Below, one piece after another: positions 57,785 through 63,604 of a stretch of 64,000 nucleotides of DNA. This DNA is from a virus. The stretch lies in IMG/VR virus record IMGVR_UViG_3300010224_000001, positions 64,001-128,000 of that record. The stretch is one strand, 5' to 3'. The notes beneath the pieces were generated by a model, which worked only from the letters and a program-made list of their open reading frames with translations, was not told the DNA's origin and searched no databases. The translations under genes and the position numbers were made by a program. Each line of letters starts with the position of its first letter. Position 1 is the stretch's first letter.

Positions 57785-59026
57785 ATGACAACCGTTATTA
57801 CAAGCCCGGCTTATCCGGTCGATTATAGCGGCAGAAATGCTGCTAATTTAATCACAAACGAACAACAAGTTCTCACTGGTGTAACCGGACATGACTACTA
57901 TTTCATCATTCCGAGATATGCACCTTACTTTGAGAGTTCTTTAACAATTTCATTCAAAGCATTAAGCGGCGAAGTACGTGTCTTAAAATCTGGTATTGAT
58001 TACTACCCGACGCACTACTTCTTAGGCGCATCCCGTGCTTGTGCTTCCCAGATTTACAGCTCTATCACTTTCTTGAATCAAGCCTTAGTGGGTACGGTTA
58101 CGATGTCGTATCAAACCTTGGGTGGCGAGTGGGTGGAAGATACCGGTACTATTGCTGAAGTCTTAGCGGACCGTGTTCGCAATCCTCGCATCACGACTTG
58201 GGAGCAGGTGGTAGACCTGCCTGGTTTATTCCCTGTGGTCGATCACGCTTGGAATCTGGTTGACATGGTGGGTATGTCGGCTGTTGTGGATGCCTTAGGT
58301 CGAGTCAGTGATGCGATTGCGAATGCTGCTAGCGCATTGGCTGTGCAACACTTAAACGATATCAGCAACCCGCACAAGGTCACGGCTGAGCAAGTTGGTG
58401 CGGTTACGCCTTCTCAGCTGACTGCTGCGGTTAGTAGCGCTTTAGCTGAGGCAGGTGCTGCGAATACCGATAACTTAACTGAAGGTACGAGGAATCTGTT
58501 CTTTACTGAAGCCCGTGTGCTCGGTACCGATCTGGCTTCTTTACCTGACGCTGGTCAAAATATTGCGATTACTAAAACCGATACCATTATCTCGGCTTTG
58601 GCAAATCTGCAAGCTCAGCAAGTTGCTGCTAACTCAAGTATTGCTAAATGCGCCCCCTCAGCTAATCCGACCTTTACCGGCTTGACAGCAGAACATTTAG
58701 AAACCATCAGTGCCACGACGGCATTAACGAGTCTGGATTTATCTCAAGCGTCTGCATGGTTAATAAATATTAACGTTAGTACTAGTATAGCGTTTAATCT
58801 GAACAACGTTAAGAATGCAACCGGTAATGTGCTCGAATTTGCCATCACTACGATTAACGGTGCAACGGGTAATCAAGCGATCTCTTGGCCGAGTAGTGTG
58901 CGTTGGGCAGATGGCGTAACACCACCGCGTACAGTTGCTGCGTATGCTCGTGACGAGTATTATTTCTATTCCATCGACGGTGGCGCGACATGGGTTGGTT
59001 CGCTTTCGAATCTCAACGTTAAGTAA
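57785..59026 (+). CDS. Tail fibre-like protein
   Basis: N-terminal YPxDxxG..AANL...P..APYF attachment domain, NPHKVTAEQVG fibre motif, TDNLTEG..NLFFT motif, C-terminal WP..VRW..G..P...DGG.TW domain. Confidence 0.72.
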   Translation: MTTVITSPAYPVDYSGRNAANLITNEQQVLTGVTGHDYYFIIPRYAPYFESSLTISFKALSGEVRVLKSGIDYYPTHYFLGASRACASQIYSSITFLNQALVGTVTMSYQTLGGEWVEDTGTIAEVLADRVRNPRITTWEQVVDLPGLFPVVDHAWNLVDMVGMSAVVDALGRVSDAIANAASALAVQHLNDISNPHKVTAEQVGAVTPSQLTAAVSSALAEAGAANTDNLTEGTRNLFFTEARVLGTDLASLPDAGQNIAITKTDTIISALANLQAQQVAANSSIAKCAPSANPTFTGLTAEHLETISATTALTSLDLSQASAWLININVSTSIAFNLNNVKNATGNVLEFAITTINGATGNQAISWPSSVRWADGVTPPRTVAAYARDEYYFYSIDGGATWVGSLSNLNVK

Positions 59027-59042
59027 GTAAAGGTAGAGTGCT

Positions 59043-60722
59043 ATGTCGAGACTCGTAAAACGGCTTCGGCGTGAACCTACAACGCCGGGCATAAAGGCAG
59101 GTCAACAGATCTTTAACTCACCGGGTGCATACCAGCCGAAGTTTGGTAAGGTTAAGGTCTACGTATCAGGACGCGGTGAGAGTGGTAACTCACCTACTCC
59201 TGGTACAATTGCTAACTACAATCCGCCAACCCCAGGCAATTATGTTAGTACGAACCCTTCATCGGGTGGCACCTACGCAGGAACCAATCCGAGCACGGGT
59301 GGCAATTACGCAAATACGAATCCAAGTACTGGCGGTAATATCGTTGGGTATAACTCACCCACTCCCGGTAACTACGCTGGTACTAATCCGCCTACTGCTG
59401 GTAATGTTGCTGGTTACAATCCGGCGTCACCTGGTTACACAGTAACGACACCTGGTAACTATGTTCCAGGTAATCCTTACACGAACCCGTATTACTCACC
59501 AGCGGTGCCAGGGACTGCGTATTACAATCCTTCGATTACTACACCTGGTTATTACGTAGCGCCTTCGTATCAAGAGCTGAACATTGCTATGACACAGACG
59601 TGTCCGGTAGGTTGGGTGACTGGGTATGACTATGACGACAACGGTCATCCGTTTAAAGTCTGTGATGTGTATACAGCAGGATATACCAACACCCCAACCA
59701 CAACACCAGGCAATTACGCAGGTACTAACCCGACAACCCCTGCTGTGTATTATCCTGGTAATTATAACCCTGGTACTTACACTCCGGGTAATTACGTTCC
59801 GGGCACATCCAATCCTGGCACGTATAGTCCAGGTAACGCCAATACCGCTTATAGTAACCAAGGAACGTATACGCCAGGTAACTATGTAGCGGCAACGAAT
59901 AATCCTGGAACATACACCCCTGGTAATACCAATACGGCGTACACGGCTCCTGGTAACACCGTTCCAGGCTATCAAGATGTAATGGATGGTACGGCAGCAG
60001 GTGCGTGTCCAGCTGGATGGACAACTTGGACAACGTGGCAAGCTGATGGTGCAGAAGGTCCGTTCTTAACGTGCACGATTACGTATAGCCCTTACACGAA
60101 TCCGCCGACGTATGTGCCTGCATCGACTAACCCTGGTACGTATACACCGGGGAATACGAATACAGCATATACCAACAACGGCAGTTATACGCCTGGTAAC
60201 TATGTTGCGTCGTACACCAACCCGGCAACATACACACCTGGGAATACGAATACAGGTTATACTAACCCAGGTACATACACACCTGGAAATATTACGGGCG
60301 CTTACACCAATCCTTCTACGGTGTATTATCAGTCAGGTACACCTGGTTATGCCAACTATAACCCGAGTACGCCAGGTAATATGTATTACAACCCGACAAC
60401 TCCTGGTACGGCTATTTATAGCCCGACTGTTCCTGGCACCGCCAATTACAATCCAGTGGTTCCGGGGAATGCATTCTATAACCCGATTGTTCCGGGGACT
60501 GCTAATTATAATCCAGCAACTCCTGGTACAGCGAATTATAATCCTACGATTCCTGGTAACGTAGGTAGAACATACTCCACGCTTGGAGTCACCTTCCCTG
60601 GCGGACCTGTGGGGCAACCTGCGCCGCAAGTGGGTGACACCTTAACCACGATTGCTTACTCAAATACTGCAGTGCCTGTTGAAGTGCGCTACGGTGGAGT
60701 GGTTATCGTCAAAGAACAATAA
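59043..60722 (+). CDS. Pro/Gly/Asn/Thr/Tyr repeat protein, putative fibre adhesin
   Basis: 559 aa with 11-, 15- and 10-residue PG..NP repeats and two CPxGW...C modules; follows the fibre gene. Confidence 0.75.
   Translation: MSRLVKRLRREPTTPGIKAGQQIFNSPGAYQPKFGKVKVYVSGRGESGNSPTPGTIANYNPPTPGNYVSTNPSSGGTYAGTNPSTGGNYANTNPSTGGNIVGYNSPTPGNYAGTNPPTAGNVAGYNPASPGYTVTTPGNYVPGNPYTNPYYSPAVPGTAYYNPSITTPGYYVAPSYQELNIAMTQTCPVGWVTGYDYDDNGHPFKVCDVYTAGYTNTPTTTPGNYAGTNPTTPAVYYPGNYNPGTYTPGNYVPGTSNPGTYSPGNANTAYSNQGTYTPGNYVAATNNPGTYTPGNTNTAYTAPGNTVPGYQDVMDGTAAGACPAGWTTWTTWQADGAEGPFLTCTITYSPYTNPPTYVPASTNPGTYTPGNTNTAYTNNGSYTPGNYVASYTNPATYTPGNTNTGYTNPGTYTPGNITGAYTNPSTVYYQSGTPGYANYNPSTPGNMYYNPTTPGTAIYSPTVPGTANYNPVVPGNAFYNPIVPGTANYNPATPGTANYNPTIPGNVGRTYSTLGVTFPGGPVGQPAPQVGDTLTTIAYSNTAVPVEVRYGGVVIVKEQ
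59199..60551 (+). repeat. Intragenic degenerate tandem repeats (33-, 45- and 30-nt periods)
   Basis: 7 x PGNYAGTNPxT-type (59199-59429), central PGNxxxxYTNPGTYT-type 15-mers, 7 x PGTANYNPxx-type (60342-60551). Confidence 0.85.
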
Positions 60723-60762
60723 GAGTCAATCTTATTTTTAGTCTTTTACCTTCTCTTAAGGA

Positions 60763-62307: not shown

Positions 62308-62313
62308 AAACAA

Positions 62314-63099
62314 ATGAGTAACTTCCACCTGATACGGACTTTGAAAGACACAGTTATTAAACTGCTGACACGCTCTACACCTTCGTTGATTAAATTCGCT
62401 TGTAGCCGGGGCGGTTATTATGTAGCCACTCCAGTTACTACTGCGCGCGAACTCGTTCCTAACTTTGTTAAGGAGCAGATTCGTAATGCAAAGGCAGCGA
62501 ATAACGGCACTGGTAAAGCGATAGCTAAGTTTGTGCGTTGTCCAGGCATGCATGACTTATCTCAGCAAGGTTATTTGGTCTACGCCCATACCGACATCCA
62601 CATCATGGCTAGTAAACACACCGTCGTGGTGGATACGCCATTGGTGCCAGCTGCGGAACTGGGCTGTAAGCCAATGGACTTTGAAGTTGTGGATGGGTTA
62701 GCACCTATTCCCGACAACGTCAAGAAGGGTGTGTTCAAAGTTCCGTGTCCGTGGGGGGTTCATACCGACCCTGGTTACTCAGCACATGTTCTCCCTGCCT
62801 TCTATCACTTCCCGTACTTTGATAAAGTGTATGTGTATCCAGGCACGGTAGACTACGATGATTTCCATACGTTGAATTTCATCATCAGTCCGATCGCGCA
62901 GTGTGATTTCGTTATTCCGGCAGGTACACCTTTATTGCAAATCATTCCGTTTAAGCGAGAAGATTTCCATGGCACTTCAGGTCCGGCTTCGGACATTGAA
63001 CGGGACCGTCTTTTGTTTGGCTTCCCGAGCCGTGTTAAGGGTGCTTATCGTCGACTGTTTTTCAAGAAGAAGACATTCACCATTGAGGTTACTAAATGA
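62314..63099 (+). CDS. Second DUF6065-like paralog
   Basis: RCPGM.D....GY, K...PW...T.PGYS, GTVDYD....LNF and IPAGTPLLQIIPF; clearly parallel to the upstream gene. Confidence 0.6.
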   Translation: MSNFHLIRTLKDTVIKLLTRSTPSLIKFACSRGGYYVATPVTTARELVPNFVKEQIRNAKAANNGTGKAIAKFVRCPGMHDLSQQGYLVYAHTDIHIMASKHTVVVDTPLVPAAELGCKPMDFEVVDGLAPIPDNVKKGVFKVPCPWGVHTDPGYSAHVLPAFYHFPYFDKVYVYPGTVDYDDFHTLNFIISPIAQCDFVIPAGTPLLQIIPFKREDFHGTSGPASDIERDRLLFGFPSRVKGAYRRLFFKKKTFTIEVTK

Positions 63100-63551
63100 C
63101 CACCATTATTTACTTCTACACTGACCGTACGTTAAAGACGGCGACGTGGGCGGGTCCAATGCCTGAAGTGTGGGAAAAGATTTCTGGCTTAACGCCGGAT
63201 AACTACAACGACGCCCGTGAGCTGAGCTGGGCCGGTGCTGAGTACGCGGGTAAAGGTTTCATGACGCGTCAAGATGCTCTCGACCAAGGCGTTATCTCAA
63301 ACGTTCTGGACGACCTGACTCAGACCGCCTACGACTTTGAATGGTCGCGCCTGGATCCGATCCGTCAACAACTGATCAGCGACATCCAATGGCGTATTGA
63401 TCGTTACAATAGTTACGTCCGTCAAAGCTTGACTCCTCCGGAACCCGTCGAACCTTTGGATGCGTATGTGCAAGCAATTCGTGACTTGAGTACCCTTTAC
63501 ACGAATCCGTTTGACATCGTATGGCCTACAGTGCCTCCGCTTCCGGCATAA
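63096..63551 (+). CDS. Tail fibre assembly chaperone
   Basis: C-terminal R..LI...W...YVQAIRDL.......I.WP..P signature of tail fibre assembly proteins. Confidence 0.8.
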   Translation: MTTIIYFYTDRTLKTATWAGPMPEVWEKISGLTPDNYNDARELSWAGAEYAGKGFMTRQDALDQGVISNVLDDLTQTAYDFEWSRLDPIRQQLISDIQWRIDRYNSYVRQSLTPPEPVEPLDAYVQAIRDLSTLYTNPFDIVWPTVPPLPA

Positions 63552-63604
63552 TAGCAAAACATACCTTGCGCCAGAGCGATTGTGGTCGCTCTGGCTTTTA
63601 TGCG
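63544..63604 (+). terminator. Hairpin closing the fibre/oxygenase operon
   Basis: GCCAGAGCGA-TTGTGG-TCGCTCTGGC, then TTTTATGCG. Confidence 0.7.

Follow-up and report, generated by a model that had tools for sequence, protein, structure and literature searches.

A conserved phage cassette joins a prolyl-hydroxylase-like oxygenase and two DUF6065-like proteins to fibre-associated repeat proteins

The fibre locus and its genes

Close to the end of a 64,000-nucleotide stretch of viral DNA (the window, bases 64001-128000 of IMG/VR virus record IMGVR_UViG_3300010224_000001, which measures 322,570 bp and has direct terminal repeats), a compact unit of six genes combines tail fibre components with three enzyme-like proteins. 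It encodes a tail fibre (fib1), a T/P/G/N/Y-rich repeat protein (PR1), an oxygenase of the prolyl 4-hydroxylase (P4H)-like, 2-oxoglutarate (2OG)-Fe(II) type, two DUF6065-like proteins (D1 and D2) and a chaperone-like protein. We show that the oxygenase, D1 and D2 form a cassette whose genes accompany PR genes and one particular fibre C-terminal domain in phages with little else in common. The features of the locus are as follows (positions in the window; lengths in amino acids, aa):

57785..59026, plus strand: fib1, tail fibre, 413 aa; phrog_2163/13857 in the N-terminal part, phrog_9017 in the C-terminal part
59043..60722, plus strand: PR1, T/P/G/N/Y-rich repeat protein, 559 aa, candidate substrate; recognised by composition and conserved terminal modules
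60763..61398, plus strand: P4H-like 2OG-Fe(II) oxygenase, 211 aa; PF13640, E 7.7e-22
61408..62307, plus strand: D1, DUF6065-like, dUTPase fold by AlphaFold2 model, 299 aa; phrog_7084, E 4e-43
62314..63099, plus strand: D2, divergent D1 paralog by hhalign, 261 aa; phrog_7084, E 3e-23
63096..63551, plus strand: tail fibre assembly chaperone-like protein, 151 aa; phrog_4912, E 4e-7
63570..63604, plus strand: intrinsic-terminator-like hairpin and T run at the end of the six-gene unit, from a hairpin scan
63651..64000, plus strand: start of fib2, a second fibre gene that crosses the window edge (353 aa when complete), from the open reading frame (ORF) and the genome sequence

The original prediction described six co-oriented genes separated by 16, 40, 9, 6 and -4 nt, with a terminator at the end and no obvious hairpin inside, and this layout is reproduced here. 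The ORF list agrees exactly in coordinates (57785-63551, all on the plus strand) and spacing, the last value being a 4-nt overlap between the start of the chaperone-like gene and the stop of D2. A purine-rich, Shine-Dalgarno-like stretch lies upstream of all six start codons. Directly past the last stop codon, the hairpin at 63570-63595 has an 11-bp stem with 7 G-C pairs and is followed by a T run; it is the strongest terminator-like hairpin between 57000 and 64000, where the 13 others have stems of only 5-7 pairs. The chaperone-like protein matches PF16778 over its last 29 residues only, at 22.0 bits (E 1.5e-4), under the cut-off of 26.6.

The genome as a whole contains one PF13640 oxygenase, that of the cassette, one D1/D2 pair and three PR paralogs. 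The fib2 gene (genome 127651-128712) is followed by PR2 (520 aa, genome 128722-130284), behind which, where the first unit carries the enzymes and the chaperone, lies an ORF of ~60 aa (genome 130340-130530). The third paralog, PR3 (361 aa, genome 307099-308184, opposite strand), is 51% identical to the N-terminal half of PR1. It belongs to a third fibre/PR pair outside the window, ~180 kb from the enzymes (genome 306115-311667, minus strand), in which a 1143-aa fibre-like gene precedes it and a 320-aa chaperone-like gene follows it.

Just upstream of the fibre locus, positions 55243-56417 (plus strand) hold a 300-aa ORF and then an 86-aa Gly/His/Cys-rich ORF, which by by-eye resemblance only is a candidate PAAR-like spike-tip protein. 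For a 411-aa structural gene of the neighbourhood, the best relatives (30-41% identity) come from Burkholderia, Ralstonia, Xanthomonas and Pseudomonas jumbo phages. A megablast search of the whole region against the phage collection, run with the low-complexity filter on, gave no match. Three DNA-type sequencing runs of a single study contain small shares (0.07-0.11), with no RNA run listed.

Conservation of the cassette and its neighbourhood

To describe the genomic context of these genes, loci were retrieved by sequence pattern, and the proteins of the window served as seeds for labelling their ORFs with jackhmmer (three rounds, E<1e-5); PR proteins were also labelled by composition (>50% T+P+G+N+Y). 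A survey anchored on D1 yielded 252 pattern matches, of which 188 encode relatives, and the best 80 loci, with 84 D1 genes, were read. These genes are 43-56% identical and form 49 clusters at 95% identity, 40 at 80% and 11 at 60%. The oxygenase adjoins 83 of the 84, lying directly upstream in 78 cases, upstream across a 636-nt insert in one (L079) and directly downstream of a second D1 copy in four (L080-L083); in the remaining case (L006), D1 sits at the contig end. D2 directly follows D1 in 76/84, and PR adjoins the oxygenase on its upstream side in 67 of the 81 cases with at least 1.1 kb of upstream DNA, lying within 2 kb in 71. Across the 40 clusters (80% identity), the gene order PR, oxygenase, D1, D2 is preserved, and neighbouring genes overlap or stand a few bases apart.

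A survey anchored on PR, based on a degenerate DNA pattern of the conserved PR N-terminal motif, matched 92 stretches, of which 3 lack a PR-like ORF, 23 end less than 1 kb past PR and 66 are informative. An oxygenase lies within 6 kb downstream of 60 of these 66 PR genes, accompanied by D1 in 53. With the overlap with the D1 survey removed, 18 stretches have an oxygenase and 6 have none, while 7 are cut and 3 are not PR. Six of the 66 PR genes have no oxygenase despite at least 1 kb of downstream DNA. Among them, L137 and L171 come from records that carry D1 elsewhere, L144 and L161 continue with a further PR gene and then the locus end, and L147 continues with two other ORFs in a record that is 16% complete. 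L123, a PR gene without the enzymes, was considered as a contradiction and set aside: it has the same architecture as the third fibre/PR pair of the genome, in a record that is 48% complete. The same trio of a fibre-like gene, a PR gene and a chaperone-like gene is seen in L123, L137 and L171. In both directions, the counts (67/81 and 60/66) bear out the expectation that the oxygenase and DUF6065-like genes co-occur with repeat proteins.

The association extends to the fibre itself. All 49 distinct fibre C-termini encoded directly upstream of PR genes match the C-terminus of fib1 (E<1e-3), whose last ~110 residues form the domain that precedes the PR gene in all related loci. Around the constant cassette, the fibre varies from 124 to 2092 aa, and one to four PR genes are present, with differing repeat types. 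Jumbo phages of 226-322 kb carry the cassette, and so does a podovirus-like phage region in the genome of an Undibacterium (L088), which also encodes a major head protein, an internal virion protein and a PR protein of 210 aa, and which may offer a culturable test system. Seven loci lie in cellular genomes, two with the full cassette, among them that of Undibacterium, and five, all from Planctomycetota, with a lone D1-like gene. A related arrangement, with the order of the enzymes inverted and no D2, occurs in L268-L278, L258 and L236, where a fibre is followed by a TPGNY-rich protein, then D1 and last the oxygenase; this protein, of 460 aa in L236 and ~1100-1165 aa in the others, is not recognised by the PR profile.

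The unlabelled ORFs around the cassette were clustered and assigned to families by Pfam. Their largest cluster, a protein of 310-340 aa whose start coincides with the D2 stop or lies a few bases from it, is PF11397, 'Glycosyltransferase (GlcNAc)' (3.9e-29 and 7.3e-26); a comparison with PDB sequences gave no meaningful match for it. Among the 79 loci with at least 1 kb past D2, this glycosyltransferase directly follows D2 in 46 and is present anywhere in the locus in 51. The chaperone follows D2 in 20, including the whole clade of the window, while one locus has both genes and nine have neither. In L109 (2022-3692), the PF11397 domain is fused to an FkbM methyltransferase and lies between PR and the oxygenase. 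Four loci carry a PF03567 sulfotransferase between PR and the oxygenase or between the oxygenase and D1 (L021:8658-9365; L042:7644-8336; L143:2567-3268; L165:2350-2982), and farther downstream in related loci we found weak sulfotransferase matches as well as extra PF13759 and PhyH oxygenases. Three loci have an ORF of ~210-250 aa directly after PR (L021:7934-8677; L042:6895-7650; L147:625-1251), alike by eye and without a Pfam match at E up to 0.01; the next gene is the sulfotransferase in L021 and L042 and an unassigned ORF in L147. A glycosyltransferase and sulfotransferases that join the cassette fit what is expected of a protein-decorating system.

An alternative is that the three enzymes are auxiliary genes that happen to reside in a hypervariable fibre region and whose target is not the PR proteins but a small molecule or secondary metabolite, the surface of the host or one of its proteins. 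Few 'auxiliary' genes are as common in aquatic phages as those for 2OG-Fe(II) oxygenases. The phage enzymes have been read in terms of 2OG and nitrogen physiology, DNA repair or secondary metabolism (PMC3037559; passages of PMC2938197), and the role of viral P4Hs has been called 'cryptic' (PMC9301287). Moreover, passages of Iyer, Abhiman, de Souza and Aravind (2010; PMC2938197) treat phage gene arrays as secondary-metabolite genes and note a dUTPase-fold, Cys-bearing protein in the array of cyanophage Syn9. Our searches identify Syn9 gp43, next to two halogenase genes, as a D1/D2 relative; in both Syn9 and P-TIM40, the D1 relative is surrounded by two tryptophan halogenases and several 2OG oxygenases, with tail-fibre assembly genes a few genes away. 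Oxygenase relatives that lack both PR and D1 (22/80 loci, see below) also favour this alternative. However, random insertion at a hot spot sits poorly with a gene order kept in 40 clusters with hardly any intergenic DNA, with PR genes that predict the oxygenase in 60/66 cases and with a cassette that travels with the fibre C-terminal domain into differing phage types, and we regard the alternative as unlikely.

Properties of the enzymes and their candidate substrate

The cassette oxygenase matches PF13640 at 78.5 bits (cut-off 27) and has an intact HxD...H...RxS site (H126-I-D128, H188, R198-L-S200), with H126, D128, H188 and R198 invariant in 30 of 30 cassette oxygenases. Its nearest PDB relatives by sequence are the PKHD hydroxylases 3dkq and PiuC, the prolyl 4-hydroxylase of PBCV-1 (5c5t, E 1.6e-5), the EF-Tu prolyl hydroxylase 4iw3 and human P4H-TM, 6tp5, with no AlkB or TET chain among them. 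The cut-off of the YbiX/PiuC equivalog (NCBIfam PRK05467) was missed, with a best score of 61.5 bits compared to 143. The oxygenase is thus intact and of the prolyl-hydroxylase (P4H) type, with peptidyl-proline hydroxylation as its predicted activity.

D1 scores 21.8 bits against PF19541 (DUF6065), under the cut-off of 26.6, and D2 has no PF19541 match; in precomputed tables, PF19541 is assigned to many of the D1 relatives with 45-55% identity. The AlphaFold2 model of D1 (predicted local distance difference test score, pLDDT, 89.1) was compared with known structures using VIA-align. The top 22 chains were all dUTPases, dCTP deaminases or herpesvirus dUTPase-like proteins (Z 9.5-5.5; next chain 3.9), in agreement with the top Foldseek match (3ecy, E 9.4e-4), and the two independent aligners place the core of the fold at residues ~58-258. 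As modelled, D1 has the fold of the trimeric dUTPase/dCTP deaminase superfamily. The N-terminal helical extension (residues 1-57; 61408-61578) is present in jumbo-phage relatives and absent from most homologs of ~245 aa; by eye, it contains an internal duplication with two copies of LTPE..AELNLR. D1 and D2 are paralogs according to hhalign (probability 99.3%, E 7e-21). The earlier proposal of two dUTPase-fold paralogs therefore stands for the modelled fold of D1 and for the relationship between the two; for D2, the fold is predicted from this relationship.

At the level of individual residues, the conserved Cys that had been noted in each protein is confirmed, C116 being invariant in 51/51 D1 relatives and C76 in 28/28 D2 relatives. 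Across the 51 D1 relatives, ~30 positions are invariant, many of them polar (K114, C116, D121, H161, Q165, K181, N184, D219, R254 and E270 among the polar ones). D2 has fewer, namely C76, P77, G78 and D180. The family of D1 and D2 is large, with 3108 cluster representatives at E up to 0.001 in a profile search of 1.84 billion representatives; an ESM Atlas search returned DUF6065 or unnamed clusters only, and a tblastn search with D2 gave no match in the phage collection.

Given the fold of D1, the two proteins could be divergent nucleotide enzymes, similar to dUTPases or dCTP deaminases, that serve DNA metabolism alongside an oxygenase acting on nucleotides or DNA. In line with this notion, the 322-kb genome yielded no PF00692 dUTPase in a family search, a D1 relative of the halovirus HRTV-2 lies beside thymidylate synthase and DNA polymerase, and PHROGs labels some oxygenase relatives 'DNA endonuclease V'. 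Nevertheless, neither D1 nor D2 matches PF00692 in Pfam at E up to 0.1, and hhalign gave a probability of 0.1% for the D1 profile against a single sequence, phage 80alpha gp32 (record label 'Na/K ATPase'), which we take to be the dUTPase of that phage. In addition, the genes belong to a late-type fibre operon, in which a fibre-associated protein is encoded ahead of them and a fibre chaperone behind them, the closest solved relatives of the oxygenase include the protein prolyl hydroxylases 5c5t, 4iw3 and 6tp5, and the genes that join the cassette in relatives encode a glycosyltransferase and sulfotransferases rather than nucleotide enzymes. A role in nucleotide metabolism thus appears very improbable.

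Another possibility is that D1 and D2 are not enzymes at all but dUTPase-fold scaffolds or chaperones that help the PR repeats to fold or oligomerise or offer them to the oxygenase. Among the structural matches of D1 are pp71 (8qdo, Z 7.1) and ORF10 (7byf, Z 6.0), herpesvirus proteins without catalytic activity, the lack of a Pfam dUTPase match or of profile similarity to a phage dUTPase would be compatible with a loss of catalysis, and the genes adjoin the fibre chaperone. Fibres and dUTPases are, furthermore, both trimers. However, the ~30 invariant and often polar residues of D1 are more reminiscent of an active site, and the PR proteins that D1 would need to accommodate are far less conserved than D1 itself (43-56% identity), making a purely structural function quite unlikely.

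Whichever their activity, D1 and D2 may act together, as suggested to some degree by proteins with two DUF6065 domains in one chain. At least eight such chains, of 450-500 aa, are found among the best 150 family representatives (P0168, P0176, P0205, P0228, P0250, P0278, P0285 and P0296), and they represent either natural fusions of the D1/D2 type or gene-calling read-throughs. A homolog search for fused D1 forms of 525-2000 aa, a length band above that of the two-domain chains, found none, which is weak evidence. Complex prediction for D1 (55-299) with D2, run without controls, gave scores of 0.14 and 0.00 compared to a mark of 0.32, which speak neither for nor against a complex. It is tempting to speculate that the DUF6065-like pair is a type of tailoring enzyme built on the dUTPase fold, forming a heteromer that, together with the oxygenase, decorates PR proteins into hydroxyproline-rich fibres. 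It could use a nucleotide or nucleotide-sugar on the new hydroxyls or on Tyr, Thr or Asn of the repeats. This specific proposal is doubtful.

The candidate substrate has an unusual composition. PR1 consists of T, P, G, N and Y to 67%, and the three PR paralogs are the only ones among the 447 ORFs of at least 120 aa in the genome to exceed 50%. It ends in a module on either side, the N-terminal one basic, and contains two Cys-bracketed knobs; the two terminal modules are conserved across loci and shared by PR2. PR1 and PR2 have units of ~9-11 residues, such as YNPxxPGxAx and NPGTYTPGNTx, and in PR1 Pro-Gly dipeptides (37 compared to 10.3 expected from shuffles) and PGN (18 compared to 1.3) are strongly enriched. 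The repeats are not collagen-like: neither PR1 nor PR2 has a run of Gly at every third position or a Pfam collagen match. Profile searches gave no Pfam or PHROG match for PR1, and tblastn against the phage collection, with the low-complexity filter on, found none either. An AlphaFold2 model of the PR1 monomer, built from a 9-row alignment, reached a pLDDT of 40.4 and a predicted template modelling score of 0.22, with only the first knob (~165-225) confident.

Collagen-type P4Hs act on X-Pro-Gly. Because this is the classical site of such enzymes and PR1 contains so many more Pro-Gly dipeptides than expected, Pro is the first candidate for the target residue in the phage of the window. PR proteins in general are the presumed substrate of the cassette. 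Asn hydroxylation is also possible, since Pro-Gly is not conserved family-wide and Asn is the most frequent residue in PR repeats across the family.

A proposed tailoring pathway for fibre-associated proteins

Taken together, these observations lead us to propose that the PR-linked cassette modifies the phage's own PR proteins, as part of a fibre module with built-in tailoring, a reading to which we assign a probability of roughly 0.55. According to this model, PR1 would dock on the conserved C-terminal domain of fib1 as a distal, highly variable extension of the fibre. The P4H-like oxygenase would hydroxylate residues of the PR repeats, with the proline of X-Pro-Gly as the first candidate and Asn as the second. 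D1 and D2 would work with the oxygenase as a pair, which is the weakest step of the model. D1 looks catalytic and D2 degenerate, and they may perform a second tailoring step or serve as substrate adaptors. The chaperone would then help fibre assembly after tailoring, and the three PR paralogs of the genome probably share one set of enzymes, acting in trans. In relatives, the glycosyltransferase and sometimes sulfotransferases may extend the pathway, as would fit hydroxylation followed by O-glycosylation or sulfation, such that the phage of the window, with neither enzyme, would have a minimal form. The maturation pathway put forward in the original prediction is partly supported, by comparative linkage across divergent phages and by the glycosyltransferase and sulfotransferases; oxygenase relatives without PR or D1 detract from it.

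Several observations weigh against this model. Some come from a survey anchored on the oxygenase, in which at least 599 stretches matched, at least 581 proved to be relatives and the best 80 were read. D1 is adjacent in only 38 of these 80 loci (with PR adjacent in 22, a PR-like ORF nearby in 12 and less than 1.5 kb of upstream DNA in 4). Another 20 have no D1 but a TPGNY-rich ORF, which is adjacent in 6 and nearby in 14. The remaining 22, with oxygenases of similar identity, have neither, and 13 of them have at least 2.7 kb of upstream DNA. The oxygenase family thus extends beyond the cassette. As both this survey and the D1 survey cover the best-scoring 80 loci each, distant relatives are under-sampled, and many loci are related, so that the counts do not represent independent events.

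D1-like genes likewise occur alone. In the five Planctomycetota loci, no oxygenase, PR or fibre relative was found in the surrounding DNA, which is high in G+C and rich in spurious ORFs. PF19541 is present in 25 of 401 sampled Pseudomonadota genomes (one marked unpublished), again as a D1-like gene by itself, with no recurring neighbour within 1.5 kb. Among cultured viruses, D1 relatives at 24-32% identity are found in haloarchaeal tailed viruses and six cyanophage records, with the HRTV-2 gene located as described above and that of cyanophage S-RIM4 beside ribonucleotide reductase. Enzymes that are common without any repeat or fibre gene had been named at the outset as an outcome that would speak against the pathway, and the 22/80 oxygenase loci and the lone D1-like genes represent this outcome in part, on the oxygenase side for the more distant relatives.

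Further reservations concern the substrate and the genome itself. Across the PR family, the median share of Pro followed by Gly is 0.27, and the share is below 0.3 in 72 of 119 proteins, so Pro-Gly is not a family-wide motif. For the parts of the unit, expression, modification and presence in the virion are putative, as is the adhesin or receptor-binding role of PR1 put forward in the original prediction. Finally, the genome of the window contains no PF11397 protein by family search, in which control genomes were silent too, and a tblastn search with the cassette glycosyltransferase gave no match at E below 1.

The concept of viral or cellular repeat hydroxylation followed by decoration has precedents. 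The founding member of PF11397 is Gnt1, the GlcNAc-transferase that acts on the hydroxyproline of Skp1. By analogy, the phage PF11397 enzyme may glycosylate the newly formed hydroxyl group. In the Skp1 pathway of Dictyostelium and Toxoplasma, PhyA acts first and Gnt1 second, with hydroxylated Skp1 as the substrate of the latter (passages of PMC3515798). The similarity lies in the combination of a P4H-type oxygenase with PF11397, as seen in 51/79 phage loci, and in the sequence of hydroxylation and glycosylation. However, the Skp1 pathway targets a single Pro of a cytoplasmic adaptor rather than a long, repetitive, virus-encoded and fibre-associated protein, and it has no counterpart of D1 and D2. 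Because the genome of the window lacks PF11397, the analogy rests on its relatives.

Other systems are similar in part. Chlorovirus PBCV-1 reportedly has a prolyl 4-hydroxylase along with proline-rich repeat proteins of its own (Eriksson et al., 1999), and its enzyme (5c5t) is among the nearest solved relatives of the cassette oxygenase. PBCV-1 is, however, a eukaryotic virus with other repeats, in which no operon is known to link enzyme and substrate and no DUF6065 partners are known. In Mimivirus, collagen-like fibre proteins are accompanied by a virus-encoded hydroxylase/glycosyltransferase, so that both modifications are again made by a virus on the repeats of its own surface fibres; this eukaryotic giant virus differs in using a lysyl hydroxylase and true Gly-X-Y repeats. 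Mycobacteriophages also decorate their own structural proteins with phage-encoded enzymes, but they glycosylate capsid and tail proteins directly, with no known oxygenase, repeat protein or DUF6065 partners. Similar in outline are bacterial operons for which passages of Iyer et al. (2010; PMC2938197) predict that collagen-like or tail-collar proteins are hydroxylated by beta-hydroxylase or PhyH dioxygenases and then sulfated by sulfotransferases. They resemble the cassette variants with sulfotransferases, and the passages also note the dUTPase-fold Cys protein of Syn9, whereas the dioxygenase families and the Gly-rich collagen-like or tail-collar substrates differ, and the set of PR, P4H-like oxygenase, D1 and D2 is absent from these passages. 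A pair of obligatory dUTPase-fold proteins is without counterpart in the known systems compared. Our literature search, which did not cover supplementary data, found no published description of PR, a P4H-like oxygenase and a DUF6065 pair, with or without a glycosyltransferase, no paper naming DUF6065 and, in the phage literature, no match linking Gnt1, Skp1 and hydroxyproline.

Collectively, our findings tie one large branch of the phage oxygenases to a fibre-associated repeat protein and thus to a concrete, testable substrate, and they give the DUF6065/phrog_7084 family its first functional context. If the doubtful notion of D1 and D2 as tailoring enzymes were true, the products would be to phages what extensins are to plants. 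Such a system would then be shared by hundreds of uncultured phages and account for many 'auxiliary metabolic' 2OG oxygenases of phages. More generally, a pathway of this kind would add hydroxylation, and in relatives glycosylation and sulfation, to the ways in which phages vary the surface of their host-recognition organ.

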